From contig NZ_QXJP01000022.1 in NCBI RefSeq assembly GCF_004115085.1, forward strand, positions 32,325-64,324: 32,000 nt of DNA, written 5' to 3'. The stretch comes from Longirhabdus pacifica (GTDB lineage: Bacteria; Bacillota; Bacilli; Paenibacillales; DSM-105158). Made by a program: the position numbers and the translations under genes. Shown here one piece after another: positions 8,334 through 27,011 of the stretch; position 1 is the stretch's first letter, and every line of letters begins with the position of its first letter. The notes beneath the pieces are model-generated. The model was not told the DNA's origin, did no database searches, and was given only the letters and a program-made list of their open reading frames with translations.

Positions 8334-8364
8334 TGATTCTAACCCATTGTATCCAAAAAAAGTA

Positions 8365-9628: not shown

Positions 9629-9631
9629 AAC

Positions 9632-10651: not shown

Positions 10652-10684
10652 ACAAAATAAAATTAACTGAGGAAGGTGATTGAT

Positions 10685-11122
10685 GTGGCATTAGATGCAT
10701 CACGTACAATTAACGGAACATTTGGAGAAGTTTGGTATGATGGAGAATGGTTAACAAATATAAAAAGTGCAGAAGCTGCTGTAGAGATAAACAAAGAAGA
10801 AATACAACGTGCTGGGACTCGTTGGGTAGCTCATAAGGTTACTAGTTTAACCGGCAGTGGTACAATGACCGGGTATAAGATTACTACAGAATTTATTGAG
10901 CGAATAGGACAAGTAGCAGATGATACAAAGGGGCCATTTGTAACAAGTATTATGATGAAGTTAGCTGATCCTGAATCATTTGGTGCATACCGTGTTCGTC
11001 TAAAAGGCGTTCAATTCGATAGTATTCCGCTAATGAACTATGAAGTTGGTTCAATAGTAGAGGAAGAGCTACCATTTACATTCACTGGATATGAATTAGA
11101 AGATAAGATACAAGCTCAATAA
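10685..11122 (+). CDS. xkdM: Tail tube protein (XkdM-like)
   Basis: (M)ALDASRTINGTFGEVWYDGEW..EELPFTFTGYEL is XkdM-like from end to end. SD GAGGAAGG ends 9 nt before GTG 10685. The ORF-track GTG at 10676 abuts the SD. Confidence 0.9.
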   Translation: MALDASRTINGTFGEVWYDGEWLTNIKSAEAAVEINKEEIQRAGTRWVAHKVTSLTGSGTMTGYKITTEFIERIGQVADDTKGPFVTSIMMKLADPESFGAYRVRLKGVQFDSIPLMNYEVGSIVEEELPFTFTGYELEDKIQAQ

Positions 11123-11133
11123 AGAGATTTTAG

Positions 11134-11171
11134 TAGCGGTTTATTTCCTTATTAGAAATAAACCGCTTTTT
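11134..11171 (+). terminator. Intrinsic terminator-like hairpin directly after the tube gene, inside the structural operon
   Basis: agcggtttatttc (11134-11146) / gaaataaaccgct (11154-11166), a perfect 13-bp stem with a 7-nt loop, followed by ttttt. Confidence 0.75.
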
Positions 11172-11233
11172 ACTTTTATTCATGCAAGTATTTCATAGCA
11201 TTATTCTATTTTATACATTGGAGGAAAAATAAA

Positions 11234-11626
11234 ATGAGTAACCAACGACAGGAAGAAATTTTAAATGCATTATTAGATACGGAAATCAAACCACAAAAAG
11301 AATTATATATGAAACGATTTGGTGTTAATTTCTCCATCGAAGCATTAGATGGAAAAACAATACATCGAATTCGTGAACAGGCAAGTTACCCAGTGAAGAA
11401 TGGAAAACAGCTTGATGAAGAGAAGTTTGGAGCATTAATCATTGAAAAATCTTGTAAACAACCAAATTGGTCTGATGATAAGCTAGTGAATGCCTTCGGC
11501 CCTACACCAGTTGATGTTATTCAAAAGCGTTTATTAGCAGGAGAAATCGCAAGATTAACAACCGAAATTTTAAATCTTTCTGGATTTGGTGATGAGGAAG
11601 AACAAATTGAAGAAATAAAAAACTAA
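11234..11626 (+). CDS. xkdN: Tail assembly chaperone (XkdN-like), zero-frame product
   Basis: Position between the tube and tape-measure genes, acidic C-terminus (GDEEEQIEEIKN), SD GGAGGAAAAA upstream. Confidence 0.8.
   Translation: MSNQRQEEILNALLDTEIKPQKELYMKRFGVNFSIEALDGKTIHRIREQASYPVKNGKQLDEEKFGALIIEKSCKQPNWSDDKLVNAFGPTPVDVIQKRLLAGEIARLTTEILNLSGFGDEEEQIEEIKN
11617..11623 (+). promoter_or_regulatory. Programmed -1 ribosomal frameshift slippery heptamer A_AAA_AAC
   Basis: Zero-frame codons ata aaa aac are followed by taa taa. The -1 frame opens exactly here and stays open for 63 codons, up to the tape-measure start. Confidence 0.7.
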
Positions 11627-11814
11627 TAAAGTCAGGTGGCATACCTTATTTAATGCATGAAATATTTCAAAGACAAGGGATACCACCTGACGAAATCTTC
11701 TCCAAACCTAGAATAGTCCAGCAATTTATGCTTTCTTCTATGATATTAGTACTTGAAGAAGAAGAGCGTGAAAGAAAGCGTACAACAAGGTTAAATCAGA
11801 AAGGAGGGAGATAG
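11623..11814 (+). CDS. -1 frame extension of the chaperone (G/GT-type fusion; missing from the ORF track)
   Basis: The -1 frame reads LIKSGGIPYLMHEIFQRQGIPPDEIFSKPRIVQQFMLSSMILVLEEEERERKRTTRLNQKGGR. Its stop TAG (11812-11814) directly abuts GTG 11815 of the tape measure gene. Confidence 0.65.
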   Translation, partial: LIKSGGIPYLMHEIFQRQGIPPDEIFSKPRIVQQFMLSSMILVLEEEERERKRTTRLNQKGGR

Positions 11815-13872
11815 GTGGATCAGGATTTAAGTAAGACGATAAAAAAAATAAATACTTTTTCAGACAGCTTAAAAGAAGCCCTAGATCGGCTAGATGCTTT
11901 TAATAAGTCTTTAAAAAAGATGAGTGAAGTTAGCAAAGTAGCAGCTAAAAAATTGAAAAAAACCACAAAAGAAACCAGAAAGTTAACGGACCAAACAAAT
12001 ATGCTAGCCGCATCTATGAAACAGACATCCTCTGCTTCAAGCAAACTTAAGAAGACAATGAAAACTATCCCTTCTATCTCAAATAAAGCGTGGAACATGA
12101 TGAATAAAACAAAGATCATCAAATCTTTCACAAAAACTGCAACTCATGGATTTCAGTCCTTCATAAATAAGACGAATCAAGCCAAAGGAAAACTAAGTGC
12201 TTTTTTTAATAAGATGAAGTACGCAGGATTAATAAAAAAGTCGTTTGGTAAACTGGGTTCAGTTTTCACATCTACATTCGGAGGATTGAAATCAGGTGCT
12301 GGAAAAGCATTTGGAGCAATGAAGTCTACATCCTCTAAAGCTTTTGCAGGAATGAAAAGCGGATTGTTAATGGTTGCTGATTTAGCTGTAAAAGCCGCAA
12401 CTGCTGTATTTAGTCTAGCTTCAACAGCTTTGAAATCGGCTGCAAAGCGGGAAACGCAAGTTATACCTATCCAAGCGGCTATACACGCAAAACTTGGTGG
12501 TGGTGAAGATGCAAAGGCAAAAGCTGCTCAATTAACATCAGACCTAGTTAACGAAATGAAAAAGAAGGCAGATGGTTCAAGGCTTTCCACAGATAATTTT
12601 CTTGCCTCTGCCAATTCGTTTACTCCTATAACAACGGATCAAAGTGAATTAAATCAATTAGTCGATTTTGCGAATAGAATGGATGCTGCTACTGGTAAAG
12701 GCATGTCATCTTTATCAGATGAACTAATGCAAGTCATGCAGGGTAATACGGATGCATTTGCACAAAAGTATGACATTGCTGATCAATTTGTAGGGTTTGA
12801 TCAACTACAAACAAACGCAGAAAAGATCCAACGACTAGATGAAATATTAGAAGGTATTGGTCATTCCACTTATGCGGTGGAGTTAATGGACAATAGTGCA
12901 ATGGGAGAATATTTGCAATTTACTACACGATTTAAAGAAGGTTTGGCTCAGGTTGGATTAATGGCCTTAGACAAACTAAAACCACTACTATCACTGATGA
13001 ATGAAATATTTAGTGCTGATAAAATGCAACCTTTCATTCAAATGGGAGGTAACTTATTTGCTGGTCTAATAGAGGGGGTAATGTATCTAATTCAGTTTAT
13101 ACAATTAAACTGGCCAAAGATTCAGCAATATTTTGCTAATGGTGTAGCGCTATTAACACCAGTATTTAATGCGTTTAAAGATGCTATGATTACCATCATT
13201 GAAGCCGTGAAACCGTATTGGGGCTCATTTATAGAAACTATACTCTCCGTTCAAACCGCAGTAAAGCCCGTTTTCACATTAATTGCTAGTTTAATTCGAG
13301 CGATTGGATCTGTGGTAGAAGCTGTAATGCCTACTGTTATGGATATTTTTAATACCGTTTTTCCTATGGCAGCGGACCTAGCAGGTACTTTGGCAGAAGG
13401 AATTAACTGGCTCGTGACTGAAATAGTTGAACCACTAATTCCTCTCATTGGAGATGTTATTAGCATAATGTGGGGAATAGTTGAGCCTATAATTGGTTCT
13501 CTCAAGTCTGCGTTTGACTTCCTTGCAGATAGTATTGGTAGTGTTGTAGGGAATGTAACGGACTTCTTTAAATCTGTAGGAGATGTTGGTGGAGAACTTA
13601 TTGGCAATGCTATTAATTTCGTTACAGGTGGAGATAGCGTGGATGGTTCTCATTCTAGCGGCCTTTCTTACGTTCCAAGAGATGGATATATTGCCCGTTT
13701 GCACAAAGGGGAAAGGGTATTAACATCTGAGGAAAATAAAGCTTACGGTAGCAATAGCATGCACATTGCTAAATTAGCGGATCAGATTGTTGTTAGAGAA
13801 GATGCAGATATTGATCGTATTGCTAGTGTTTTAGTTTCTAGAATGAGTGAAGCAGGCATGTCTTATGCTTAG
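11815..13872 (+). CDS. xkdO: Tail tape measure protein (XkdO-like, 685 aa)
   Basis: Lys/Ala/Ser-rich helical N-terminal half, hydrophobic Gly/Ala/Ile-rich central part, C-terminal ..LSYVPRDGYIARLHKGERVLT.. motif typical of tape measure proteins. Position after the chaperone. Confidence 0.85.
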   Translation: MDQDLSKTIKKINTFSDSLKEALDRLDAFNKSLKKMSEVSKVAAKKLKKTTKETRKLTDQTNMLAASMKQTSSASSKLKKTMKTIPSISNKAWNMMNKTKIIKSFTKTATHGFQSFINKTNQAKGKLSAFFNKMKYAGLIKKSFGKLGSVFTSTFGGLKSGAGKAFGAMKSTSSKAFAGMKSGLLMVADLAVKAATAVFSLASTALKSAAKRETQVIPIQAAIHAKLGGGEDAKAKAAQLTSDLVNEMKKKADGSRLSTDNFLASANSFTPITTDQSELNQLVDFANRMDAATGKGMSSLSDELMQVMQGNTDAFAQKYDIADQFVGFDQLQTNAEKIQRLDEILEGIGHSTYAVELMDNSAMGEYLQFTTRFKEGLAQVGLMALDKLKPLLSLMNEIFSADKMQPFIQMGGNLFAGLIEGVMYLIQFIQLNWPKIQQYFANGVALLTPVFNAFKDAMITIIEAVKPYWGSFIETILSVQTAVKPVFTLIASLIRAIGSVVEAVMPTVMDIFNTVFPMAADLAGTLAEGINWLVTEIVEPLIPLIGDVISIMWGIVEPIIGSLKSAFDFLADSIGSVVGNVTDFFKSVGDVGGELIGNAINFVTGGDSVDGSHSSGLSYVPRDGYIARLHKGERVLTSEENKAYGSNSMHIAKLADQIVVREDADIDRIASVLVSRMSEAGMSYA

Positions 13873-13883
13873 GAGGTGATAAA

Positions 13884-14525
13884 GTGCAATTTTGGTTAAG
13901 TTACAATAACGAAGCGGAAACTTTTCAACTTCCAGTGAATCCACAAAACATCAGCATATCTTCTGGTCATAACTTTAACGATGTACAAGTTTCCAAACTT
14001 GGTGAGTTTACCATCATCGGAGAAGAGCAACTCAAACAGTATGATTTCTCATCTTTTTTTCCAAAAGACTATCAGCCGATGTATTGTGAATATGATGGCT
14101 TTCCAGAACCTTGGCAGGCAGTAAAGAAAATAGAAGAGTGGCAAAAGTCAGGTAACCCCGTTAGCTTTAAAATTACAAGTCATGATGAAACCCAAAAAGT
14201 AAATACCGCAGCAACCATCCGCTCATTCAATTACGAAGAAAAAGCGGGTAGCCCTGGAGATATTTACTTTACGATTAGTTTGAAGGAATTTAAATTCCTA
14301 GAATTTCAAAAAGTAGAAGGTCCCGATGACTTGCAAAAAGTAAGACCAAATAACCAAGAGAAAGTAACAACTTACATTGTAAAAAGCGGAGATTCATTAT
14401 GGAAAATTGCGCAAAAAACATTGGGAAATGGAAGTGAGTGGCGCAAAATTTATGATGCAAACGTCGATGTCATCGGACCGAATGAAAACTTGATTTACCC
14501 GAAACAAAAGTTGGTGATTCCATAA
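13884..14525 (+). CDS. xkdP: LysM-domain tail protein (XkdP-like)
   Basis: C-terminal LysM: YIVKSGDSLWKIAQKTLGNGSEWRKIYDAN...LIYPKQKLVIP. SD GGAGGTG lies before GTG 13884. Confidence 0.85.
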   Translation: MQFWLSYNNEAETFQLPVNPQNISISSGHNFNDVQVSKLGEFTIIGEEQLKQYDFSSFFPKDYQPMYCEYDGFPEPWQAVKKIEEWQKSGNPVSFKITSHDETQKVNTAATIRSFNYEEKAGSPGDIYFTISLKEFKFLEFQKVEGPDDLQKVRPNNQEKVTTYIVKSGDSLWKIAQKTLGNGSEWRKIYDANVDVIGPNENLIYPKQKLVIP

Positions 14526-15520
14526 TGAATTTACAAATAGCATATAACGGAGACTTTTATATTGATCCTATCGTGACTTCTGTTACATGGTCGGGAGATA
14601 TTAAACAGGCATTCCGCAAACTAGAACTTAGTATTTCCAATACGGAAAATGGGGATAATCCTATCATTACGTTTGAAAAAGGGAAACCACTAGTCCTTTC
14701 AAAAGACGATAAAGAACTATTTCGCGGTGTTATTTTTTCTCATTCTATGGAATTAGATGGGACGATGAAACTAACGGCATACGATGAAAATATATATTTA
14801 ACAAAAAACATGGATACGAAAAAATTTGTCAACATGACAGCTTCTGAAATTATCGGGCAGCTATGTAGTGAGTATGATATTCTCGTTGGATCGATTCAAG
14901 ATACAGGCTATGTGCTGCCAAAATTAATTTTACGAGACAAAACATTATGGGATATGATGATTACCGCCTTAACGGAAACGAAGAAACAAACCGGAAGGCG
15001 CTTTTTTATTTATTCTGAACAAGGAAAACTATTTGTTAAAGAACGCAAAGAAAGAGTAGTAGAGTGGGTTTTACAAAACGGATTTAACATATTAGGCGCA
15101 TCCTATTCTGAATCTATCGAAGACTTACGCAATCAAGTGAAGGTATACAGTGGAGATATTAATAAGGGTCCCTACGATGAAGAGATTGAGCATGACGATC
15201 AGTCTATTGAAAAATATGGTTTAATGCAGCATTTGGAAACGGCAAGCAACGATCAAAAACAGTCTCAACTAAAACAATTAGCAAAACAGTTATTAAAAGA
15301 CTTGAACAAAGTGTCGGAAGAAGCAAGCATCGAAGCATTAGGTCACGATGGCGTTATTTCTGGAACATCCGTGGATGTCACCGAAGCCATGACAGGCATG
15401 AAAGGTGCTTACTATGTCGTAACAGATAGTCATACTTTCGAGAACAATATGCATCGCATGCAAGTGACATTATCTGAAAAAGAAGAGCTTCCTACACTAG
15501 AATATACAGAGCAAGAGTAG
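14525..15520 (+). CDS. xkdQ: Baseplate hub / late-control-D-like tail protein (XkdQ-like)
   Basis: TAATG overlap with the previous gene. Size and N-terminus (..VTSVTWSGDIKQAFRKLELSI..) resemble XkdQ/YqbQ. Confidence 0.8.
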   Translation: MNLQIAYNGDFYIDPIVTSVTWSGDIKQAFRKLELSISNTENGDNPIITFEKGKPLVLSKDDKELFRGVIFSHSMELDGTMKLTAYDENIYLTKNMDTKKFVNMTASEIIGQLCSEYDILVGSIQDTGYVLPKLILRDKTLWDMMITALTETKKQTGRRFFIYSEQGKLFVKERKERVVEWVLQNGFNILGASYSESIEDLRNQVKVYSGDINKGPYDEEIEHDDQSIEKYGLMQHLETASNDQKQSQLKQLAKQLLKDLNKVSEEASIEALGHDGVISGTSVDVTEAMTGMKGAYYVVTDSHTFENNMHRMQVTLSEKEELPTLEYTEQE

Positions 15521-15555
15521 CATTGTAGTTTTCACCTGCTTAGGAGGAGGTAAAA

Positions 15556-16026
15556 ATGAAAGTGAATGAAGAAAAGCCAGAAGGCGGCTCCTATAGCAAG
15601 CTCATACAAATGATGCAAACATTCGGCTATAACAAAGATGTAGATGTCGAATTAGCAACCGTACTGTCTGTTGAACCTCTGAAAATTAAAGTGGACAATA
15701 TGAACATTGAATTAGAGGGTACGGATTTAATTGTAGCGGAGCAATTGTTGGAACATAAACGTACGTTAAACATAAATCAGCAGCCTATGACGGTGCAAGC
15801 AGATGTATCCCAACATGATATTAGCGCCACCAGTTCATGTACTGCTGGGGGTTCTACTATCCCCAATAATAACGTTACGTTTACAACATTAGGCTTGGAT
15901 GCCGAAGTTTCAGGAGAAAATATCGAAGTGACGATCATGTCTAAACTTGAAGTTGGAGACCGTGTTATTGTCGCCTCGATACAAGATAATCAAATTTTTG
16001 TCGTATTAGATAAGGCGGTGATTTAA
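15556..16026 (+). CDS. xkdR: Baseplate spike/plug-like protein (XkdR-like, DUF2577)
   Basis: Order in the cluster and the ..ATVLSVEPLKIKVDNMNIELEG.. pattern of the DUF2577 family. SD AGGAGGAGG upstream. Confidence 0.7.
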   Translation: MKVNEEKPEGGSYSKLIQMMQTFGYNKDVDVELATVLSVEPLKIKVDNMNIELEGTDLIVAEQLLEHKRTLNINQQPMTVQADVSQHDISATSSCTAGGSTIPNNNVTFTTLGLDAEVSGENIEVTIMSKLEVGDRVIVASIQDNQIFVVLDKAVI

Positions 16027-16440
16027 TTGGCTTTAAGCCCAATACAACAAGCGCCAAATGTAGAGATAAAAGAGAGTAGAAAGCAAATAGCATCGTCAAA
16101 GACATACCATTTTAATTTTGATACAGGCGAAATGAAAGGATTTGTAGATAGTTTACAAGCGATCAAACAATATATTCGTAAAGCACTATGTACGCCTAGA
16201 TTTCGCTATTTAATATATGATGACCAATACGGAAGTGAATTGGAAGAACTTATCGGCAAAGACGTTTCTAATGAGTTCATTTTTGCCGAAATTCCTCGTC
16301 TCGTAAGAGAAGCACTCATTTACGATGATCGAATTACAGACGTTAAAGATGTAAAAGTAAAGCGACAAGACGATGCTATCTACGTATCGTTTCAAGTAGA
16401 AACTTACCTAGGTAGCATACAAGAGGAGGTGAAGTTGTAA
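16027..16440 (+). CDS. xkdS: Baseplate wedge protein, gp25/W-like (XkdS-like, DUF2634)
   Basis: TTG start directly after the previous stop. ..TPRFRYLIYDDQYGSELEELIGK.. is typical of DUF2634. Precedes the baseplate J gene. Confidence 0.75.
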   Translation: MALSPIQQAPNVEIKESRKQIASSKTYHFNFDTGEMKGFVDSLQAIKQYIRKALCTPRFRYLIYDDQYGSELEELIGKDVSNEFIFAEIPRLVREALIYDDRITDVKDVKVKRQDDAIYVSFQVETYLGSIQEEVKL

Positions 16441-17549
16441 TGGCATATGAGAACGTAACAAAAGATGTTATTTTAGAGCGTATGTTAGGACAAGTGCCAG
16501 ATGACATTGATAAGCGACAAGGGTCTATCACGCATGATCTCTTATCGCCAGCAGCGATTGAACTAGCACAAACTTACATTCACTTAGATCAAGTACTTCG
16601 TTTTGGCTTTGCTGATACGACTTACGGTGAATATCTGGATTTACGCTGTGCAGAAATGGGTTTAACACGAAAAGCGGTAACGGAAGCAGAAGGACAAGTC
16701 ACGTTTACCGGACCTGATGGAACCGTCATCCCTGTTGGAACACAAGTTTCCTCATCCCCACTCATCGACAGTGATACCCTATATTACGTGACAACGGAAG
16801 AAGGTAAGGTTTTAAATGGCAGTGCGGCCGTGAACATTAAAGCTGTTACTGGAGGTGCACAAGGTAATGTGGAAGCACATTTCATTACTACCGTGATAGG
16901 AGATTTAAGCAGCGTATTGAGTGTGACAAATGATAAACAGACCGAAGGCGGAACAGACGAAGAATCAGATAAAGAATTGCTCGACAGATATTTAGAACAT
17001 GTACAGCAGTCTGGTACGAGTGGCAACGCCAACCATTACTTGCAATGGGCAAAAGAAGTCCCGGGTATATCTGAAGCGTTGGTCAAACCGCTTGCCAATG
17101 GACCAGGTACTGTAAAAGTGATCATTCTAGGTGATGATAAAAAAGCACCTTCTACCGAAATAACGGAAGATGTGGACAAGCATATTGAAAAAGTACGTCC
17201 CATTGGAGCAGATGTTACCGTAGAAGCAGCAACAGAAATTCCAATTACTATATCCGTAAAAATAGAATGGTTAGATGGCTACAAAGGACAACGGACATTA
17301 GAACAGTTACAGCAAAAAATTACAGAAGATATTACGCAATATTTAGCTTCATTAGCTTTTGCTGATCCTATCGTACGCCGCTCACAAATAGGAAATGTCA
17401 TACTCGATTTAGAAGCAGTCAAAGACTACGATGAACTATATATTAATGGACAAGCAACAGGTAATGTAGAAATTGCTATCCAAGATGGACAAGTAGCCGT
17501 ACTGTCTGAAAACGGTGTGACCGTAACAGAGAAGGAGGGAAGTGCATGA
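16440..17549 (+). CDS. xkdT: Baseplate J-like protein (XkdT-like)
   Basis: TAATG overlap with the previous gene. ..GSITHDLLSPAAIELAQ.. and ..GGTDEESDKELLDRY.. are baseplate-J family features. 369 aa. Confidence 0.85.
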   Translation: MAYENVTKDVILERMLGQVPDDIDKRQGSITHDLLSPAAIELAQTYIHLDQVLRFGFADTTYGEYLDLRCAEMGLTRKAVTEAEGQVTFTGPDGTVIPVGTQVSSSPLIDSDTLYYVTTEEGKVLNGSAAVNIKAVTGGAQGNVEAHFITTVIGDLSSVLSVTNDKQTEGGTDEESDKELLDRYLEHVQQSGTSGNANHYLQWAKEVPGISEALVKPLANGPGTVKVIILGDDKKAPSTEITEDVDKHIEKVRPIGADVTVEAATEIPITISVKIEWLDGYKGQRTLEQLQQKITEDITQYLASLAFADPIVRRSQIGNVILDLEAVKDYDELYINGQATGNVEIAIQDGQVAVLSENGVTVTEKEGSA

Positions 17550-18136
17550 ACAACAAAAACACCACTTCTCTAGAAAAAGTGACCCAAGATATGTTGGACT
17601 ACTTGCCAAGTTACTATCAGGACAATCGTATCGTTAACAATGTCATGAAGTTAGAAGCAAGTGAAGTAAAAGCATTAAATGATGCAGTACAAGATGTACT
17701 GCATCAATTTTTTGTAGACAAAGCAACATGGGGCTTAGACAATTGGGAACGCATTTGTGGTATTACTCCAGATTACACTAAAACACATGAAGAGCGACGT
17801 GCTGTCGTGCGTTCAAAACTAAGGGGCATTGGTACTGTGAATATCGAGTTGATGAAAGAAGTGGCAGAATCTTATAACTACGGGGAAGTAGACGTAGAAG
17901 AATTACCTGCTCAATATCAGATTAACGTTAGATTTGTTGGGAAACTTGGTATTCCCTCTAACCTCGATGATATCAAACAATCGCTGCAAGAAATTATCCC
18001 AGCGCATTTGAACATTAGCTTTGAATTTACGTTCATCATTTGGAACGATATGGACGCTAACCAGTTTACATGGGATGAATTGGATGGTGAAAATATCATT
18101 TGGAGCGAATTTGAAGCTTACGAGGAGGCTTTATAA
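17546..18136 (+). CDS. xkdU: Baseplate/tail-fibre connector protein (XkdU-like, DUF2313), copy 1
   Basis: ATGA overlap with xkdT-like. ..MLDYLPSYYQDNRI..ATWGLDNWERICGI.. is the DUF2313 signature. Confidence 0.8.
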   Translation: MNNKNTTSLEKVTQDMLDYLPSYYQDNRIVNNVMKLEASEVKALNDAVQDVLHQFFVDKATWGLDNWERICGITPDYTKTHEERRAVVRSKLRGIGTVNIELMKEVAESYNYGEVDVEELPAQYQINVRFVGKLGIPSNLDDIKQSLQEIIPAHLNISFEFTFIIWNDMDANQFTWDELDGENIIWSEFEAYEEAL

Positions 18137-19749
18137 TGCCTGACTTAACGTCAAAATTAGGAATCAAAAAACCGCATGGGAATGAGTATGTGAAGCGGGA
18201 AATGTTTAATGAAAATTGGGATATTATTGATGAAAATAGCGCTTCCCAATCGCAGCTAGACACGCATGAAAGTGACACCACTGTTCACATCACACAGCAG
18301 GAAAGAGAGCAATGGAACGAAACAGAAGCAAATGCTAAAGCATACACCGACCAACTTAGCGATACAATGCACTTCCAACGTAACTGCCTCATACTAGGTA
18401 ATAACGACTGGACGTCACTAGTATATGACACAGATATGAGTAAAATTGCTTATGATCCAGAACAACAAGGGGGAATCGTGAAAGATGAAACCGCTGTTCT
18501 CATTCGCACACGTATACCTATTGATCCTGAAAGTACGTACTACGCTAGGGTAAAGGTGAAGAAGTTAAGTGGAAATGGTACGTTTTATTGTGGTGCTGCT
18601 TCATTAGATAGTGATTTTAATGCAATTATGAAAGATCAAGCAACTAATTATAATTATTTTGCAGCTTTAGCAGCTACACCACCTGTTAACAACACAATGA
18701 CCTATGAAGGCACAATCAAGGGATACAATATTGAGAATGAAGCTGATCACCATAAATTTGATCCCAATGCAGCCTATTTTGATGTTGTTATAGTCTGTAA
18801 TTACTTAAATGATGGTACTGGAACAGGACAAACTTTAATCGAATCGTTGGAAGTGTATAAAGCACCTAATACTTTATATGTAGGTGATGCAAGAGTACAA
18901 ACAAAGAAAACGATAGACTTTGTTGTAGAAGGCGATGCCAACACGTACTATCCCGTTGTGTTTGAGGGGGTAGAGTTTACTGAAAATACAAGAAAGCATC
19001 GATTAGATATTTATCGTTCATACGGTTGGCAGGCACCATCAAGTTGGTATCCTGATTCCACAAATCATTTTGCTGGATTAAATCTCATCATAGATCAAAT
19101 GTTAATAGGTTGGTCTGGTGCTTCGTATGAGATGGATGTTACGATCGGTCAAACTTTTGAAACAACGGTAGCTGACATTATATGCTCTAGACCTGATACC
19201 TCTGTAGTGATTGTTTGGATGCGAGGTGGAGGTGCGGCATATCAAATAAGCTCAACTTCACCAAACATAAAAGTGGAAATATATTACGATAAATATGAAC
19301 GAAATCCAAGAACAGATTTACCTGAGTATAATACAACTTATTATCCTAAAACTGAGGTTAATGATAGATTGAAAATATCTGAAGATGGAATATCGACAGG
19401 AATACTAACACGGTTTAATTCTTCTGCTAATCATTATATTGGAGGGGGAATTCGTGCACCGTTAAAAGGTAATAAAGTATTAACCCAAGCTGACATGGGC
19501 GAATGGGGATTCTCACCAAATAAAGACTTTCAATACTTTGGTAAAAATGCTTTAGCTGTCAAAGATTTAGCTGTGGAAGAAAAACTAGTAATTAACCAAA
19601 ACAATGATTTTTCCCATGGCGTTGAAGTTGAAGGAACCTTAACAAACAACGGAGACAAAGTGTTAACAGAAGGAACATTAAAAATAGATAGTGACGGTAA
19701 CCTAAAATTCTATAACGGACAAAACTGGAAAACCGTTCGCTACTATTAA
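18136..19749 (+). CDS. Tail fibre / receptor-binding protein 1 (XkdV-like N-terminus), 537 aa
   Basis: TAATG overlap with xkdU-like. The N-terminal ..REMFNENWDIIDEN.. anchor motif is shared with fibres 2 and 3. The C-terminal ..KVLTEGTLKIDSDGNLKFYNGQNW.. motif is also shared. Confidence 0.8.
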   Translation: MPDLTSKLGIKKPHGNEYVKREMFNENWDIIDENSASQSQLDTHESDTTVHITQQEREQWNETEANAKAYTDQLSDTMHFQRNCLILGNNDWTSLVYDTDMSKIAYDPEQQGGIVKDETAVLIRTRIPIDPESTYYARVKVKKLSGNGTFYCGAASLDSDFNAIMKDQATNYNYFAALAATPPVNNTMTYEGTIKGYNIENEADHHKFDPNAAYFDVVIVCNYLNDGTGTGQTLIESLEVYKAPNTLYVGDARVQTKKTIDFVVEGDANTYYPVVFEGVEFTENTRKHRLDIYRSYGWQAPSSWYPDSTNHFAGLNLIIDQMLIGWSGASYEMDVTIGQTFETTVADIICSRPDTSVVIVWMRGGGAAYQISSTSPNIKVEIYYDKYERNPRTDLPEYNTTYYPKTEVNDRLKISEDGISTGILTRFNSSANHYIGGGIRAPLKGNKVLTQADMGEWGFSPNKDFQYFGKNALAVKDLAVEEKLVINQNNDFSHGVEVEGTLTNNGDKVLTEGTLKIDSDGNLKFYNGQNWKTVRYY

Positions 19750-19802
19750 CATAGATAGTATGAAAAGAAACAACATTTGATCTACCTGCAACATACCAAT
19801 CA

Positions 19803-19870
19803 GCAAAAGATGTGGATGGGTAGCGACCTTTGCGGTTTATGCAAGAGGAGCACCCAGCCACATCTTTTGC
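19803..19870 (+). repeat. Structured intergenic repeat, copy 1
   Basis: Perfect 13-bp outer stem gcaaaagatgtgg / ccacatcttttgc, 5-bp inner stem tgggt / accca, conserved 29-nt core gcgacctttgcggtttatgcaagaggagc (19823-19851). Confidence 0.75.
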
Positions 19871-19882
19871 GTTTCAACTAGC

Positions 19883-19946
19883 AAAATACATGTATGCATC
19901 GCGACTTTTGTGAACTACGCAAGTGGAGCAAGCAGGCATATATTTT
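19883..19946 (+). repeat. Structured intergenic repeat, copy 2
   Basis: Stem aaaatacatgtatgc / gcaggcatatatttt (15 positions: 2 mismatches, 1 G-T). Core gcgacttttgtgaactacgcaagtggagc (19901-19929). It ends 5 nt before SD GGGAGG of the second xkdU. Confidence 0.7.
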
Positions 19947-19993
19947 ACCTCGGGAGGCTGAATACCATACTAACTCGAAAATATAAACAAGAA

Positions 19994-20545
19994 ATGCTAG
20001 ATTACTTGCCACGTTATTACCAAGATGCACGCATCCCACAAAACATCGTAAATTTAGAAGCTGAAGAAGTACAGCAACTAAATGATGCCGTACAAGATGT
20101 ACTGGATCAATTTTTTGTATCTACCGCCACATGGGGGTTAGAACACTGGGAGCGTATTTGTGACATCCCAACAGATAATTTTAAGCCCGTCCAAGAAAGA
20201 CGCTCTGTCATTGAATCCAAGCTAAGAGGGGTCGGTACCGTTAATGCTGATCTCATCAAGACAGTAGCTAAAGCATACGTCAATGGTGAAGTAGAAATTA
20301 CGGAAAATCAAAAGTTATACCAGATTAACATCACATTTGTGGGTCAGCGCGGCGTGCCATCTAACTTAGCAGACATACAAAATGCCATTAATGAAATCGT
20401 CCCAGCACACTTACAAACGACATTTACATTCACGTACTTACCGTGGAGTGAATTAGAAGGTTATAAAACAACCTATAACGATATAAAAGCCTATCAGTGG
20501 GGCGAATTACAAACTATGTTTCTAAATGATAGCAATTCAACATAG
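19994..20545 (+). CDS. xkdU: XkdU-like DUF2313 protein, copy 2 (paralogue of 17546..18136)
   Basis: MLDYLPRYYQDARI..ATWGLEHWERICDI.. is colinear with copy 1. The start is uncertain. ATG 19994 has no SD. SD GGGAGG (19952-19957) is 9 nt before an in-frame ATA (19967). The ORF-track GTG at 19910 lies inside repeat copy 2. Confidence 0.75.
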   Translation: MLDYLPRYYQDARIPQNIVNLEAEEVQQLNDAVQDVLDQFFVSTATWGLEHWERICDIPTDNFKPVQERRSVIESKLRGVGTVNADLIKTVAKAYVNGEVEITENQKLYQINITFVGQRGVPSNLADIQNAINEIVPAHLQTTFTFTYLPWSELEGYKTTYNDIKAYQWGELQTMFLNDSNST

Positions 20546-20577
20546 TTAAAACTCAACGATGCGATGCTTAACTGAAC

Positions 20578-20641
20578 AAAGAAAGTAAGTGAAAAGTGAC
20601 TTTTGCTATTTTTGCAAAAGAAGTGTTCACTCACTTTCTTT
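20578..20641 (+). repeat. Structured intergenic repeat, divergent copy (copy 4)
   Basis: 16-bp stem aaagaaagtaagtgaa / ttcactcactttcttt (1 mismatch). Core gtgacttttgctatttttgcaaaagaagtg aligns with the other cores and carries a perfect inner 7-bp hairpin cttttgc / gcaaaag. Confidence 0.6.
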
Positions 20642-20652
20642 ACGCCTACCTA

Positions 20653-20720
20653 GCAGAATATATGTCTGTGCCGCGACTTTTGTGACCTATGCAAGTGGAG
20701 CAAACAGACATATGTTTTGC
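20653..20720 (+). repeat. Structured intergenic repeat, copy 3
   Basis: 17-bp stem gcagaatatatgtctgt / acagacatatgttttgc (2 G-T pairs, no mismatch). Core gcgacttttgtgacctatgcaagtggagc (20673-20701) matches the copy 2 core at 27 of 29 positions. Confidence 0.75.
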
Positions 20721-20731
20721 CCCCTATGTTC

Positions 20732-20791
20732 CATCTCTACTATCGTTCTTTTTTAAGCGAATTAAGAGCGTACGATAGTAGAGATGTTTTT
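20732..20791 (+). terminator. Perfect 15-bp hairpin plus T-run just upstream of the fibre-2 RBS (terminator-like)
   Basis: catctctactatcgt (20732-20746) / acgatagtagagatg (20772-20786) with a 25-nt loop, followed by ttttta. The large loop makes its efficiency uncertain. Confidence 0.55.
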
Positions 20792-20833
20792 ATATACAGT
20801 AAAGTTGCAAGATGAAAGGAGAGGAAATAATAG

Positions 20834-23764
20834 ATGAGCAATAACAAAACCAACCATTTGAATCTGAATGTATGGGAATCATCAGATTACGTACTACACG
20901 AAGAATTCAATGAAAATTTTCAAACAATAGATCTTGAAGTAGCAGACGCAAAAGAACACCTAACAAATTTACAAGATGAAGTGAATGATTTAGAAGAGAA
21001 TGTTGAGCATATTAAGCAAAAACTAGCGGATACATCGGCAACGACCATCTCTTTACAGCGAGGACAAAACATTGTAACTACCGAACAAGCATCTGGTGTT
21101 CGTATGACAGAGATAATAGGGAGGACAATGGTTAACTTGTTAGGTAGCGATGGCAACTGTGAGGACACAAGTAAATTTTCCGTGCAAATTGCTTTAAAAG
21201 CGGATACATTCCAGCTAAGTAAAGCGGATGCAGTGTATGGTGGACATGGGATTCGTGCTACTTTCTCCTTAGTAGATGATTTGGAATATGGAACTAGTTT
21301 TTATGGTATACGGAATTACAACATCAAACAAGGGAAACACTATTTAGCTGCGGCACATATTAAAGATAGTAGTTCATCAATTAAAGGAAATGTTGCTGTA
21401 AGAAAATTTAATACGGAATATCATATTCAAAGTACAGATAGTAAATTAACATCGACATTAGACTATGTCACTTTCACAGCAGATGGAACAGAAGAGAGTG
21501 TAGGGATATATTTTAATGTTTTAGCTAATGAGCAATGGTGTGCTTTTGATGGCTTAAGGCTATACGAAATAATAGAAAGTGAAAAAACCTACATCGACTC
21601 ACTTAGTATCATAGAAGCGGAAAAATACATTGCAACGCGATATCCATATGTTGAAGGTTTACGTTCTTTAACAAATCCATATGTCATTCGTTATGGTAGA
21701 AATGTCATCCCTCCCTTTTCTGATTGGAATTTGTCGGAGGAAACTACGATAGATAAAGATTATAAACTTACATTACGTGCTACAGAACATGAGCGATGGA
21801 GCATCAGTCCGCCTATTTCAGTAGTTGCTGGTGAAGCCTATGCTTTTAGTGCTGACACTATGGACGGTAACGCCATCTATCAGTCGTGGAATGATGAAGG
21901 TGAGATCATAGAGGAAGAAGTCTTAGAAAATAACAGCTCACTTACCATTTCTGATGAAGCAGTGAAGATGACCATAAAAATAGGCAATACAGTGGAAAAA
22001 GGTACAGGTACATTCGGTTTTGAAAATTTAATGTTGGCGTTAGGCACAGCAAAAGTCAATTTTGAACCGCAAAACAATGATGAAATGTATGTCGAAACCG
22101 TCCTGCGATCAAGTATGGACGGTGAAGTATATGATTCGATCACTGAGCGAGACGGGATATTATACAAGAATAAGCGCATGGATCATATTGAGTTAACTGG
22201 AAAAATAATTTATAGATTAGTTGAAGATGTGTCAGGGGTAAAGAAAATAAGGCTTTCTAATGAATTTTTAGATAATTTCTTTAAGACATTTAAGAAAAAA
22301 CCAAACAAGCACCTATTAATAAAATATAACAATCAATTATTGGAACAAAGTATAGATGAAACAATAAAAGCAGATGCCTTTACTATATCGGAAGAAAAAG
22401 CTGTATTTATTTTTCTCTCCGACGAGGATACAGGCTGGGAAAATTATAATCCTTCTGAATGGGATATTTGTAGATATTTTAACGGTTGGAAATACATTGA
22501 TGGTGAGAAGTGGGAAAGCATTACAGGAAATAATGAAATTACAAATAGCTTACAATCACAAAAATCAATGCCTTCTAACTACACGCCTTATCAACTTCAA
22601 TATGAACTTGAAGAACCCATAGAAGAAGTAATTGAAGGTCAGTTAGGACTATCGTTTCTTACAGGGAAGAACCAAGTAGAGGTTGGTGAAGGAATTATTG
22701 TACAGGAGGAAGTTAGACCGAGAATTTTCAACTCTCAATACTGGATTAACGCTGCATTTGCAGAAAATCTTGGTGAACAATTGCCAAAGAAAAATTCAAA
22801 AATTTCATGTGTGTATCGGGACGGAAGGAAGGATGCTAATTGGAGTATTGCACCACATAATACTGATCTTGTATCTATGTATGGTAAAGAATACGCAGTT
22901 ATTTCTGAATATGACTATCATTCCGATTCAACTTACACCGTTACCTATCAAATGATAAATTCGTTAACTCCACCAATGTCTACAATGCATTTAGAATATG
23001 AGGGTAGTTTGCATACTGTAGTGGAATCTTTAGTGCAAAAAACAGCCGATCTGTCCAAGGAACTTACTTCTGTAACGAATAAAATAGATAGTGCTAAACA
23101 ATATTCCAACAAGTTAGAAAAAGAGATGCTGCATACCAAAGATACATTGTTGCTCGGTAATAATGATTGGTCCCCTTTAATATACGACTATAATAGTGAA
23201 GGATCTGTTGCATATCGTGCAGAGCATCAAGGTATTGTATTCACAGACGAGTGCTGGACAAAGGTTAGAATGAGAATGCCTGTTGACCCAGATAGTACGT
23301 ATTTTGTAAAGGCAAAAGTGAAGAAATTAGAAGGGGAAGAAGATACTAAATTTTGGTTGGGTGCGATCTCTCTTGATAACAATTATAACGAACTGCTTTA
23401 TGATACAGCCCATGTATACAATTATTTTGGAGCGGAGTTTCAAAATATATCGGCAGGAGAAACTGCATTTTTTGAGAGTGCAATTTCGGGTTATAACACA
23501 CCAGAGGAGAATTCCCATAATAAATTTGATCCAGATGCAAAATACTGGGATTTAGTGGTTATATGTAATTATGTAAATAGTTTAGACATTGTCGGAAAAG
23601 GTGAAACACTCATAGAATGGATTGAAGTAAGAAAAGCCCCATCCACTTTTTATGTAGGAGATAATAAAGTACTGGATGAAAGCACAATCCAAATCTCAAG
23701 CGACGGTAAGTTGCATTATAAATATAACGACAATTGGTATGAACTAAGTGGGATTCAAAAATAG
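20834..23764 (+). CDS. Tail fibre / receptor-binding protein 2, 976 aa (mosaic)
   Basis: N-terminal ..LNVWESSDYVLHEEFNENFQTID.. anchor. About 750 aa are colinear with fibre 3. The C-terminal 211 aa are homologous to fibre 1 aa ~77-253, plus the shared terminal motif ..ISSDGKLHYKYNDNWYELSG. SD AAAGGAGAGG upstream. Confidence 0.85.
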   Translation: MSNNKTNHLNLNVWESSDYVLHEEFNENFQTIDLEVADAKEHLTNLQDEVNDLEENVEHIKQKLADTSATTISLQRGQNIVTTEQASGVRMTEIIGRTMVNLLGSDGNCEDTSKFSVQIALKADTFQLSKADAVYGGHGIRATFSLVDDLEYGTSFYGIRNYNIKQGKHYLAAAHIKDSSSSIKGNVAVRKFNTEYHIQSTDSKLTSTLDYVTFTADGTEESVGIYFNVLANEQWCAFDGLRLYEIIESEKTYIDSLSIIEAEKYIATRYPYVEGLRSLTNPYVIRYGRNVIPPFSDWNLSEETTIDKDYKLTLRATEHERWSISPPISVVAGEAYAFSADTMDGNAIYQSWNDEGEIIEEEVLENNSSLTISDEAVKMTIKIGNTVEKGTGTFGFENLMLALGTAKVNFEPQNNDEMYVETVLRSSMDGEVYDSITERDGILYKNKRMDHIELTGKIIYRLVEDVSGVKKIRLSNEFLDNFFKTFKKKPNKHLLIKYNNQLLEQSIDETIKADAFTISEEKAVFIFLSDEDTGWENYNPSEWDICRYFNGWKYIDGEKWESITGNNEITNSLQSQKSMPSNYTPYQLQYELEEPIEEVIEGQLGLSFLTGKNQVEVGEGIIVQEEVRPRIFNSQYWINAAFAENLGEQLPKKNSKISCVYRDGRKDANWSIAPHNTDLVSMYGKEYAVISEYDYHSDSTYTVTYQMINSLTPPMSTMHLEYEGSLHTVVESLVQKTADLSKELTSVTNKIDSAKQYSNKLEKEMLHTKDTLLLGNNDWSPLIYDYNSEGSVAYRAEHQGIVFTDECWTKVRMRMPVDPDSTYFVKAKVKKLEGEEDTKFWLGAISLDNNYNELLYDTAHVYNYFGAEFQNISAGETAFFESAISGYNTPEENSHNKFDPDAKYWDLVVICNYVNSLDIVGKGETLIEWIEVRKAPSTFYVGDNKVLDESTIQISSDGKLHYKYNDNWYELSGIQK

Positions 23765-23835
23765 AGTAATTAGTTGTAAACATCGGCGTTAGTTCTTATC
23801 TAATTTTAGTAATGTGAAAGGAGAGGAAATAATAG

Positions 23836-26565
23836 ATGAGCAAGAAAACAGAAAATCTCGAGCTTCATACATGGGAATCATCAGATTATGTACTACACGA
23901 AGAATTTAATGAGAATTTTGAAACGATAGATACAACCGTGCAAGAAGTAAAGGATAGTGTAAACGATTTGCAAAGTGATTTAGGAGAAATACAGGGGAAA
24001 TTAGCAGATTCAACAAACAAAATAGTAACATTAAAACGAGGACACAATAAAGTCACGACTAATCAAGCTACCAATGTAACCTTTGATCAAATACGTGGGC
24101 GTACATTGATTAATTTATTAGGAAGAGAAGGGAATTGTGAGGAAGAAAGTAAATTTTCCGTTCAAATTGGTCAAGTAGCCAGTTCTTTTCAATCGAATAA
24201 GGAAAATGATTTTAACGGTAAATACGGTATAAAAGTATACTTTGACTTAGCAGATCAATATCCTGCTTCAAGTTACTATGGTATTCCTACTCAACATATT
24301 ATAAGCGGTAGAAACTATCTATTTGCATCAGTTATAAAAGATGGAAGTAGTTCTATTACTGGAACAGTAGCGGTAAGAAAGTCAGGAGGGTACCATAAAC
24401 TAAGTAACAAGAATAACAGTGCTTCATTTATTTTAGATTATGTAACATTCACCGCTGATGGTACAGAAAACAATGTTGGAATTCATTTTAAAATTGATTC
24501 AAATAATCAGTGGGTTGCTTTCGATAGTTTGCGTTTATATGAAATTTCTGACGAAGAAAAGACCTATATCGATTCTCTCACGCTTGAGGAAGCAACAAGT
24601 TATATCACAGTAGCTTATTCGTATGTAGATAGTGTGCAATCAATACAATGTCCTTATATCATTCGACATGGAAAAAACATGATACCTCCATTTCATGCAT
24701 GGGAATTAAGTAATGATATGATGATCCATGAAGACTACAGTGCAACATTAAATGCAACAGCATCTTCCACATTTAGTTATAGTCCAAAAATCCCGATAGT
24801 ACCTGAAGAAAATTATACTCTGAGCATGGATAAAGTAGAGGGGCAGCTGATATATCAGCTGTGGGACGATCAAGATGATCTTGTGATGGAGTCAGAGGTG
24901 ATTGGTGAAGTAACTTTCTCTCCTCCACCCAATGCTGTTAGTTTGAGCTTGAAATTAGGTATTACTTCATTTGAGACACCAGAGATGTATGTATTTGAGA
25001 ATCCAATGCTTAGCATAGGATCAAAAGTGATGAAATTCGAACCGAAAAATGATGATTTAGTATTTTTTAATACTAGCCTATGTTCGAGTATGGATAACGA
25101 GAAAGCAGATACAATAACAGAGCGTGAAAATAAATTGTACAAAACAACATGGTTTGAGAAGAAAGAATTGGATGGGTCGATGAATTGGCAATTACATGAA
25201 GAGGGATCTGGATACAAAATAGTAAAACTCTTAAACTTTGCAATAAATAAATCAATAGATATGAGTAATCTTGTTCTTATTTCTTATAACGGTCAAATTG
25301 TTGAAAATGAAGACTTTATATTAGAGAACGGAAGTTTACACATTAAGATTATGAATAGTGATAGTGGTTGGTCAGATATTACTCCCAATCCATATGATAT
25401 AAAAAGATATTTTAACGGGTGGAAATATAATGACGGAGAATTGGATCAAAGTGTTTTAAATGAAGACGAAAAAGTAGATAAGGGAACAGCGGTTCTTTAT
25501 AAATCATTTCAGTATACGCCTTATACAATCGTATACCAACTACAACAGTCTATTGAAGAAGAAATAGAGGGTCAAGTTGGTTTATCCCTTTTTGAAGGAG
25601 AGAATCAGTTAACTTTTGGTGAGGGGTTAATAGTAAAAGAAACAGTTACACCTAAATATTTCAATTCAAAGTATTGGATTAATGGTGCTTTTGAAGATAG
25701 CGAAGGATTAAGCTATAAAACAAAAAAAATCTTAGATGTATATGAAAATGGAAATGAAAAAGCAAGCTGGTCGAGAGTTTTTCATGAAGATGTAGATATA
25801 AAGCATTATGGTGATGAGCAAGCCATCATTGAAACTGGAAACTTTAATAAGAATGCCCAATATAGTGTTACTTATTTTGTAGCTGATAGTTTAAGTACAA
25901 AAGTACAACATATAGATATGCTTTATGATACAAATTTAAATATGGTAGTTCGTGAACTTGTTCAAGATATAGCTGACCAGAAACAGCAACTAGCTCAAGT
26001 TAATCATTCTTTATCTGAAAAGTATCTACGAAACGAAGGGAATCAATATAAAGAAGGGAAATTATACATTCGTCATGAAGGAGATGGTTTAGAGTTATTT
26101 CATCATGATACAAATGGATATGCTGGGATACAGTTGCATAGTAAAGGGAATGAAAACTCTGATTACGGTTATATTCGTTACTATGATGAAGCAAAGAATT
26201 TTGCTGAAGGTTTGTATGATTTACAAGAAGGGTTAGCAAATGGTGCGGATGTAAAAGAAGAAGGGTTGTTAGTTATTGGTTCAGAGAATGATCCACATAG
26301 CGTATTTGGTCCAGATCATTTGGTACTCAGAAGTGGTGCGAGGTTTATATTTGATGTAAATACAATGGTTTATGATTCAACAGACAATATATTAGCAGAG
26401 TTTCGATATAACGGAGATGTGAAAGCATATATGGACAACAATGGTGAAATCATTATTAATGATAATAAAGTATTACATGAAGGTAATATTCGAGTAAGCG
26501 ACGATGGGAAGTTGCAATATAAGTATAATAATGAGTGGTACAGCATGTCTGGAACAAAATCTTAA
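23836..26565 (+). CDS. Tail fibre / receptor-binding protein 3, 909 aa (paralogue of fibre 2 with a different tip)
   Basis: A 29-nt stretch (tgaaaggagaggaaataatagatgagcaa) spanning the RBS, start codon and first codons is identical to that of fibre 2. The N-terminal ~715 aa are colinear with fibre 2. The C-terminal ~190 aa are unrelated except for the final ..VSDDGKLQYKYNNEWYSMSG motif. Confidence 0.85.
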   Translation: MSKKTENLELHTWESSDYVLHEEFNENFETIDTTVQEVKDSVNDLQSDLGEIQGKLADSTNKIVTLKRGHNKVTTNQATNVTFDQIRGRTLINLLGREGNCEEESKFSVQIGQVASSFQSNKENDFNGKYGIKVYFDLADQYPASSYYGIPTQHIISGRNYLFASVIKDGSSSITGTVAVRKSGGYHKLSNKNNSASFILDYVTFTADGTENNVGIHFKIDSNNQWVAFDSLRLYEISDEEKTYIDSLTLEEATSYITVAYSYVDSVQSIQCPYIIRHGKNMIPPFHAWELSNDMMIHEDYSATLNATASSTFSYSPKIPIVPEENYTLSMDKVEGQLIYQLWDDQDDLVMESEVIGEVTFSPPPNAVSLSLKLGITSFETPEMYVFENPMLSIGSKVMKFEPKNDDLVFFNTSLCSSMDNEKADTITERENKLYKTTWFEKKELDGSMNWQLHEEGSGYKIVKLLNFAINKSIDMSNLVLISYNGQIVENEDFILENGSLHIKIMNSDSGWSDITPNPYDIKRYFNGWKYNDGELDQSVLNEDEKVDKGTAVLYKSFQYTPYTIVYQLQQSIEEEIEGQVGLSLFEGENQLTFGEGLIVKETVTPKYFNSKYWINGAFEDSEGLSYKTKKILDVYENGNEKASWSRVFHEDVDIKHYGDEQAIIETGNFNKNAQYSVTYFVADSLSTKVQHIDMLYDTNLNMVVRELVQDIADQKQQLAQVNHSLSEKYLRNEGNQYKEGKLYIRHEGDGLELFHHDTNGYAGIQLHSKGNENSDYGYIRYYDEAKNFAEGLYDLQEGLANGADVKEEGLLVIGSENDPHSVFGPDHLVLRSGARFIFDVNTMVYDSTDNILAEFRYNGDVKAYMDNNGEIIINDNKVLHEGNIRVSDDGKLQYKYNNEWYSMSGTKS

Positions 26566-26607
26566 TATATTGCACTTGATAAATAGATAAAGAGTTTTCC
26601 CATAGTA

Positions 26608-26910
26608 TTGGATTACAAAGATTCGGGGGAGGTGGACATCATAGATAGCCAATACAACATCATCGATTATTTTACACTGTATGGGCCGTTTGCGGTCCTT
26701 TTTGTTAGCTTATTTTTTTGGACGTTGAAAACATATAATACGAGAGAAGAATTGTATCGCAGTGAGATAGCAAACATTCGCAAAGAGTATGATATACAGT
26801 CCCAGCGACATCATGAGATATTAACCAAATTTGCAGAAAAATATGATATTGTTATAGATAAGTTGAACGCACTAGAAATAAAAATAGATACGAGTAAATA
26901 TGATGAATGA
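26608..26910 (+). CDS. bhlA: BhlA/UviB-family holin-like membrane protein
   Basis: Single N-terminal TM ..GPFAVLFVSLFFWTL.. followed by KTYNTREE and a charged coiled-coil tail, as in BhlA/UviB. The start is uncertain. TTG 26608 has no SD. SD GGAGG (26628-26632) precedes in-frame ATC 26638 and ATA 26641. Confidence 0.7.
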   Translation: MDYKDSGEVDIIDSQYNIIDYFTLYGPFAVLFVSLFFWTLKTYNTREELYRSEIANIRKEYDIQSQRHHEILTKFAEKYDIVIDKLNALEIKIDTSKYDE

Positions 26911-26973
26911 TCATGAATGATGGATTTCATTCGGGTTGCTTATTGTAGCTATGCTGTCCTTTCATAAACGAAA

Positions 26974-27011
26974 GTAAGCCGTCCTATGCTTCAAACAGCT
27001 AGACGGCTTAC
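26974..27011. terminator. 10-bp perfect hairpin between convergent transcription units (right edge of the island)
   Basis: gtaagccgtc (26974-26983) / gacggcttac (27002-27011) with an 18-nt loop. There is no strong T-run on either side. Confidence 0.45.

Follow-up and report, generated by a model that had tools for sequence, protein, structure and literature searches.

In phage T7 and in the Bacillus phage SP82, cleavage by RNase III at intercistronic sites leaves protective terminal hairpins. Repetitive extragenic palindromic (REP) elements act as local regulators in 3′ untranslated regions (3′ UTRs) in either orientation, and their accepted effects are protection of the 3′ end of the upstream mRNA and 3′-UTR attenuation or termination (PMC3733652; bioRxiv 10.64898/2026.03.23.713779). 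The TnpA and RAYT enzymes read imperfect palindromes with irregularities in single-stranded DNA (ssDNA) (PMC3479197; PMC10055086). Here we describe a family of hairpin repeats found in a 32-kb stretch of the genome of Longirhabdus pacifica (contig NZ_QXJP01000022.1, positions 32,325 to 64,324 of the forward strand; hereafter the window, with positions counted from its first letter), where four copies surround xkdU-2, the second of two xkdU genes in a PBSX-type contractile-tail cluster. Our analysis points, with a probability of roughly 0.4, to a rare, lineage-restricted, REP-like family of intergenic hairpins of marine Paenibacillaceae, which at this locus would be transcribed with the operon, would probably serve as mRNA punctuation and would carry a conserved core that probably serves a partner.

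As proposed in an earlier reading of the window from its letters alone (the original prediction), the repeats are present on the + strand as two tandem pairs, one on either side of xkdU-2, at essentially the coordinates given there:

19803-19870, + strand: repeat 1 (type a); core at 19823-19851, GCGACCTTTGCGGTTTATGCAAGAGGAGC; 19-bp outer arms, 95% complementary.
19881-19948, + strand: repeat 2 (type b); core at 19901-19929; the weakest hairpin among the four.
20578-20641, + strand: repeat 3 (type a, degenerate); degenerate core at 20596-20624, GTGACTTTTGCTATTTTTGCAAAAGAAGT.
20653-20720, + strand: repeat 4 (type b); core at 20673-20701.

The units, all within 1 kb, are 64-68 nt long with 27 predicted pairs, and their ends read (C/T)(A/C)AGCA(A/G)AA... 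and ...TTTT(G/A)C. Copies 1-3 had been described as a gapless trio sharing the core, which is wrong: the 29-nt core GCGACYTTTGNGNNYTAYGCAAGWGGAGC is common to copies 1, 2 and 4 (three occurrences in the window versus none in 100 shuffles), and copy 3 is degenerate. The covariance-model search that had been suggested was carried out with a model (R1) built from the four copies; run on the window with filters off, it recovered just those four at 78-92 bits, and the next match scored 15 bits (E 0.16). Repeat 1 starts 53 nt 3′ of the fibre-1 stop codon and has the most stable predicted fold (ΔG -40.8 kcal/mol, z -8.2; 91.9 bits). Repeat 2 ends 3-4 nt, and not 5 nt as had been stated, before the Shine-Dalgarno (SD) sequence of xkdU-2 (GGGAGG, 19952-19957); its predicted ΔG is -17.1 kcal/mol on the + strand (z -1.4) and -22.7 on the - strand, with a model score of 83.9 bits. 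Repeat 3, which starts 32 nt 3′ of the xkdU-2 stop codon, folds at -23.8 kcal/mol (z -4.5; score reported as 78.6 bits), and repeat 4 at -30.5 kcal/mol (z -6.0; 84.9 bits).

The structure is kept by compensatory changes, in agreement with the original prediction. When all four copies were aligned without gaps over the 27 pairs, 89.8% of the cells paired, compared with 31-57% when the partner was slid; 8 of the 27 pairs showed changes on both sides, compared with 0-3 for slid partners; and the covariation score was reached by none of 500 shuffles. Three of the four copies (1, 3 and 4) fold far below the energies of shuffled sequences. The predicted core fold consists of a G-C and a C-G pair, tandem G.A/A.G, a further C-G pair, one N.N mismatch (C.A, U.U or A.A), a UUUG/CAAG helix and a variable apical loop, and the G.A motif has been lost from copy 3. 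The conserved GGAG, which had been regarded as unpaired and exposed, falls within the predicted tandem G.A internal loop. A classical kink-turn was ruled out, there being no 3-nt bulge and Watson-Crick pairs flanking the tandem G.A symmetrically.

The G-U pairs of the stems had been put forward as an argument for a plus-strand RNA. This argument fails because the summed fold energy of the four copies is nearly equal on both strands (-112.2 kcal/mol on + and -111.3 on -), copies 2 and 3 folding better on the - strand. Moreover, template switching during mutagenesis likewise corrects DNA quasi-palindromes, so that compensatory change alone is no proof of an RNA as opposed to a DNA structure. Such correction is an established mutational mechanism, and it would be enough to keep the arms complementary if the repeats were neutral, decaying palindromes maintained by intrastrand template switching and not by selection. 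The degraded state of copies 2 and 3 (weak fold, lost core) and the low copy number would fit neutral decay, to which we nevertheless give very little credence: the asymmetric G.A mismatches persist where "correction" would have given a perfect palindrome, and the core has been preserved intact in a second genus, as described below.

A scan for the core pattern in one genome per species (185,579 species) returned 17 loci, about the chance expectation for 19 fixed bases. Sixteen were rejected as chance matches, lying within long open reading frames (ORFs) of mostly high-GC genomes; a few of these (e.g., L006 and L013) do carry short flanking stems, and most do not. The exception (L008) belongs to Marinicrinis sediminis, a marine member of the Paenibacillaceae, and consists of six tandem hairpin units with an 85-nt period. 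The core of the unit, GCGACATTTGCG...GCAAGAGGAGC, is identical to that of repeat 1 at 22 of 22 non-loop positions, while the stems of the window show no relationship to the outer stem of the unit, GAGAGAGAATGGAATCAG / CTGAGCCTTTCTCTC. R1 scored the array units at 13-28 bits. The pflB stop codon lies 4 nt before the start of the array, beyond the array come a terminator-like hairpin and then pflA, and the core-sense strand runs antisense to pflB and pflA alike. The pflB-pflA gap measures 925 nt in M. sediminis (L053, 9076-10000) versus 96 nt in Marinicrinis lubricantis (L052, 9905-10000); the array is read as a species-level gain because the M. lubricantis gap contains no repeat. The exact core was found at a single locus of the M. 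sediminis representative genome, and neither the 20 kb around that locus nor 20 kb of M. lubricantis yielded further copies.

Two further features of the M. sediminis gap were observed: one unit of the array is shortened to 62 nt, and the terminator-like hairpin is long (GGGGACTG...CAGTCCCC) and is followed by a T-run.

Other databases added no members. The 24 loci from a metagenome scan and the viral loci from two scans (0 and 4) were set aside as chance matches inside long ORFs without flanking stems, and blastn of the window and of the Marinicrinis units against phages and plasmids gave either nothing or a chance Klebsiella match at E=0.1. Rfam produced no match to the window at the gathering threshold (at E<=10, solely spurious microRNA and small nucleolar RNA families) and no family match to the Marinicrinis array. 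Literature searches found no description of this repeat element.

Because an identical core forms an array in the pflB-pflA gap of another genus, the element is not tail-specific. The original prediction of a plus-strand RNA specific to the tail operon is therefore only partly upheld: the repeats are real, their fold is maintained and they occupy intercistronic gaps, but the specific tie to tail genes, the strand argument and the exposed GGAG are lost. It had also named dispersed palindromes without a link to tail genes as the outcome that would speak against it; the missing link is what we found, and high-copy dispersal is not. On these comparisons Longirhabdus and Marinicrinis share a family that is to be regarded as real, small and lineage-restricted, and as tied neither to tail genes nor to the direction of transcription. 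Its recognizable traits are a long hairpin in which a core of ~29 nt sits atop an outer stem of free sequence, an asymmetric core common to both genera, and local tandem duplication just after stop codons inside operons. By analogy, the free stem and the tandem growth behind stop codons match REP-like extragenic palindromes. Since the core has been kept across genera while the stems are unrelated, it implies a sequence-specific partner, which would be either a protein or a mobilizing enzyme acting on folded RNA or ssDNA. Compensatory change does not separate RNA from ssDNA as the substrate of such a partner, given that template switching corrects quasi-palindromes in DNA as well.

Within the window, copies 1 and 3 are 60% identical and copies 2 and 4 are 82% identical, the two intergenic regions are colinear over ~165 nt, and the start-to-start spacing is 78 nt in the first pair and 77 nt in the second. 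From this likeness and colinearity it follows that the true unit is best taken as a two-hairpin dimer of ~165 nt, duplicated whole:

19787-19952, + strand: dimer unit 1, consisting of repeat 1, a 10-nt spacer and repeat 2; wholly homologous to unit 2.
20560-20724, + strand: dimer unit 2, consisting of repeat 3, an 11-nt spacer and repeat 4; predicted ΔG -54.3, z -7.3.

Dimer unit 1 folds as two independent hairpins (ΔG -58, z -5.9). Arm identity between copies ranges from 41 to 74%, and the dimers are 51-82% identical, with 18-40% divergence between units.

The duplication as a whole of a ~165-nt unit with two hairpins in direct orientation is also what would be seen if each dimer were a miniature, non-autonomous single-strand transposon, either an IS200/IS605 palindrome-associated transposable element (PATE) or a REPIN-like element. 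The hairpins would then be its left and right ends, the imperfect-palindrome core would be the ssDNA binding site of a Y1 HUH transposase, and effects on mRNA would be incidental. As in PATEs, two same-strand subterminal hairpins bound a short non-coding unit and recognition would be of imperfect ssDNA palindromes; the core, with its conserved irregularities, is of the type that TnpA and RAYT can read (PMC3479197; PMC10055086). The orientation of the elements is independent of transcription, M. sediminis has the element in a gap from which M. lubricantis lacks it, and an IS200/IS605-family element with a similarly built left-end hairpin is present in the window itself (31741-32000; TnpB N-terminus, E 4.8e-21). 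We regard a transposon as unlikely, although deserving of serious attention, for several reasons. Transposon ends are normally conserved in sequence, and the outer stems vary between copies; the left end of the resident element (31741-31810) is unrelated in sequence to the repeats, its hairpin core included; and a comparison of the two dimers, which are few copies for the purpose, identified neither a shared flanking target nor a transposon-associated motif (TAM) or cleavage motif. The copy number appears very low, the divergence of the dimers means that they are not recent insertions, and the head-to-tail tandem array of M. sediminis fits slippage or unequal crossing-over better.

The resident element lies at the end of the window (31212-32000), where an ABC-transporter ORF is broken just after its Walker A motif (~31740-31769). 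The hairpin at 31741-31810, whose 20-bp arms enclose 30 nt, precedes an ORF that runs from ~31878 (MLVNKAYKFRIYPNQEQ...) and matches HTH_OrfB_IS605 (E 4.8e-21). The segment 31741-32000 has the appearance of an insertion of the IS200/IS605 family (TnpB) that reaches into the window with its left end.

The genes on either side of the dimers belong to the distal part of the tail cluster, which is compact and occupies ~7.8-27 kb of the window (7794-27000):

17546-18136, + strand: xkdU-1, preceding fibre-1.
18136-19749, + strand: fibre-1, upstream of dimer 1.
19967-20545, + strand: xkdU-2 (Mu Gp48/YmfQ family; PF10076, 7.8e-38), between the two dimers; its product shows 100% identity to an NCBI protein of L. 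pacifica.
20834-23764, + strand: fibre-2, downstream of dimer 2 and of a terminator-like hairpin.
23836-26565, + strand: fibre-3, after fibre-2.
26608-26910: BhlA holin, at the end of the cluster.

The remaining products are a sigma-like/DUF134 protein, tail terminator, sheath, tube, XkdN-like chaperone, tape measure and LysM protein, followed by YqbQ, DUF2577, sheath initiator and Baseplate_J. Genes for capsid, portal and terminase were not detected among the tail-cluster genes examined, and no endolysin was recognized after the BhlA holin in the window. Because housekeeping genes (menaquinone and Fe-S genes) flank this head-less cluster, it resembles either an R-type tailocin or the tail module of a defective prophage, and the two XkdU adaptors together with three large fibre-like genes suggest a tailocin with alternative receptor-binding modules.

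Several observations on individual genes were made in passing. The SD of xkdU-2 is followed 9 nt on by an in-frame ATA at 19967; the first ATG (19994), at which the NCBI annotation starts (183 amino acids), has no SD, and homology to XkdU-1 reaches upstream of it. Thus xkdU-2 may use a non-canonical ATA start at 19967. A hairpin at 11631-11691 (17-nt arms, 27 nt between) spans the end of the XkdN-like chaperone gene, whose stop is at 11626, and the beginning of a small ORF at 11653-11814; frameshifting in tail chaperones is usually located at the end of the XkdN-like gene and the start of the next ORF. Outside the cluster, positions 872-1564 encode a Cthe_2314-like HEPN domain protein (E 1.6e-42), which adjoins a UbiD C-terminal fragment upstream of the mqn genes.

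The comparison covered five PBSX-like tail loci related to this one (L042, L047-L049, L050/L051 and L054). All five have a single xkdU and an xkdU-fibre gap of 13-17 nt, and none contains comparable hairpin elements. Since the relatives have one xkdU and short gaps, the L. pacifica locus is taken to be special in its second xkdU/fibre module and in its large structured gaps, two in number and of about 210 and 290 nt, around xkdU-2. That the large structured gaps accompany the extra fibre module speaks for mRNA punctuation. It also invites comparison with the PeSL elements of T4-type phages, stem-loop motifs that flank single genes at module boundaries and can mediate shuffling (PMC2839356, PMC4122927). 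Here too repeated stem-loop motifs surround a single gene, the ~165-nt direct repeats standing exactly at the module boundaries, and none of the related loci has the extra xkdU-2/fibre-2/fibre-3 module; the dimers could accordingly be scars or hot spots of recombination, i.e., junctions for the exchange of xkdU cassettes between tail clusters. We put little weight on this explanation. A PeSL combines an early promoter with its terminator stem-loop, and no + strand promoter-like site was found in the elements; dimers that are only 51-82% identical make a poor substrate for efficient homologous recombination; no second genome has a cassette bounded by the dimers; and the pfl array is left unexplained.

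Intergenic region 2 equals region 1 plus ~95 nt, and the addition carries a second type of hairpin, confined to region 2:

20732-20791, + strand: terminator-like hairpin; 25-nt arms, then five T in a row; predicted ΔG -27.1, z -6.4.

This hairpin lies between repeat 4 and the fibre-2 SD, about 40 nt before the fibre-2 start codon, and fits the pattern of an intrinsic terminator. A scan of 19750-19960 and 20546-20833 found no promoter-like site on the + strand. Expression of fibre-2 and fibre-3 would require read-through of the hairpin, because it is strong and no promoter-like site follows it.

The HK022 put RNA consists of two tandem stem-loops transcribed upstream of terminators. The dimers likewise comprise two tandem hairpins per element, and dimer 2 stands directly upstream of a strong terminator-like hairpin that would otherwise block fibre-2 and fibre-3, with no room for a promoter after it. 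In a sharper version of the original prediction, the elements might then be a dedicated cis-regulatory RNA of the fibre modules, its G.A core bound by a protein or acting on RNA polymerase in the manner of put, and read-through of the 20732-20791 terminator or control of xkdU-2 translation would set the ratio of alternative fibres. A motif conserved within an internal loop is typical of RNAs that bind proteins, repeat 2 lies right next to the SD of a gene without a canonical start codon at the expected place, and in seven of nine copies the core-sense strand gives the better fold. Even so, a dedicated regulatory RNA seems improbable. The window copies show no strand preference, copy 3 has no G.A motif, Rfam holds no matching family and the five related tail loci do without the element. 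The antisense core within the pfl operon, a context without tail genes, argues against the comparison with put as well, as do the dissimilar sequences and the much greater length of the window hairpins.

We therefore return to mRNA punctuation as the preferred explanation. The elements sit in intercistronic gaps directly after stop codons, with repeat 2 abutting an SD, and they would probably be transcribed along with the tail operon. The first hairpin of each pair would keep 3′ exonucleases off the 3′ end of the preceding message (fibre-1 or xkdU-2). Alternatively, it could cause partial termination: its A-tract/U-tract base resembles a bidirectional terminator, the U-run (TTTT) being paired with an A-run at the base of the stem. 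A terminator consensus scan did not call the repeats, and the Marinicrinis units have no U-tract. Cleavage in the 10-11-nt A/U/C-rich spacer or in the long stem, by RNase Y or RNase III, would leave the second hairpin at the new 5′ end, in dimer 1 just before the xkdU-2 SD, where it could protect against RNase J1, as stem-loops at the 5′ end are known to do for Bacillus mRNAs. Hairpin pair and spacer would provide what is required for splitting the polycistronic RNA into two protected pieces. Stems of 27 pairs have the length of RNase III substrates, as at the T7 and SP82 sites, and a role in RNase III processing or stability is plausible on this model. Together with the terminator-like hairpin, the arrangement would reduce expression of the second fibre module (xkdU-2, fibre-2 and fibre-3) stepwise, or uncouple it, relative to the core tail genes.

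Three findings weigh against this explanation. The + strand hairpin of repeat 2 is weak (z -1.4); the copy number, with four in 32 kb and one M. sediminis locus, appears very low and unlike that of typical REP families; and a pure hairpin role leaves unexplained why a 29-nt asymmetric core with G.A mismatches has been kept across genera. On a bolder reading, the tandem-G.A core hairpin would be a new RNA or ssDNA motif with a dedicated binding protein or enzyme in marine Paenibacillaceae, and the dimers would bound an exchangeable or separately regulated fibre-adaptor cassette. We consider this combination doubtful, and distinctly so; if true, it would amount to a new control over which receptor-binding module the tailocin displays. 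If the punctuation model is correct, the elements would be a Gram-positive counterpart of REP-type operon punctuation and would offer a handle on the relative expression of two tailocin fibre modules. A conserved asymmetric core within free stems is unusual among palindromic repeats and points to a partner. The small size and narrow distribution of the family limit its general importance, and the main practical outcome is a negative one, namely that association with tail genes does not belong to the element itself.

The original prediction had matched the repeats to no known class, which holds for Rfam families and for the REP-tag and attC comparisons. Integron attC sites were ruled out, as the centre is conserved and the arms vary in the present elements and the reverse is true of attC. 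ANTAR dual hexaloops and ribonucleic antiterminators (RAT) were rejected on architecture (misfit of loop size and sequence), as were shufflon/invertase sites. A type III antitoxin array was rejected because no toxin gene follows the array, and a CRISPR-like array because unique spacers are lacking. A Rex/CRP-type operator was also rejected: TTGTGAA occurs in cores 2 and 4, and this half-site is not kept in copy 1 or in Marinicrinis.

Among the described systems with which the elements share more than one trait, the RNase III hairpins of T7 and SP82 are long, intercistronic, equipped with a conserved internal loop and located in phage operons, as the window hairpins are in a phage-like one. This likeness is one of architecture only; the sequences are unrelated, and the present element also lies antisense in a chromosomal metabolic operon. 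The REP/BIME/REPIN elements of Proteobacteria differ from it in having units of 20-40 nt (64-68 nt in the window) and a conserved stem, whereas here the apical core is conserved and the stems are free. Furthermore, the pairs described here are direct and not inverted, the copy number appears tiny and the host is Gram-positive. The REP tag GTAG/CGTC (PMC3733652) does not adjoin the stems of copies 1, 2 and 4, a single CTAC being found in the spacer before copy 4. On the other hand, REP-type elements are extragenic imperfect palindromes that lie after stop codons or between the genes of operons, in either orientation and in pairs or clusters; when transcribed, their hairpins can stabilize the upstream mRNA or attenuate the downstream one, and their signature is presumably read by an enzyme. 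Both the window and the Marinicrinis elements occupy such positions, extragenic in 3′ UTRs or intercistronic gaps and in either orientation. They depart from REPs proper in size, tag and conservation pattern, but their working would be REP-like, and by this analogy they are best filed as a variant of the palindromic repeats.

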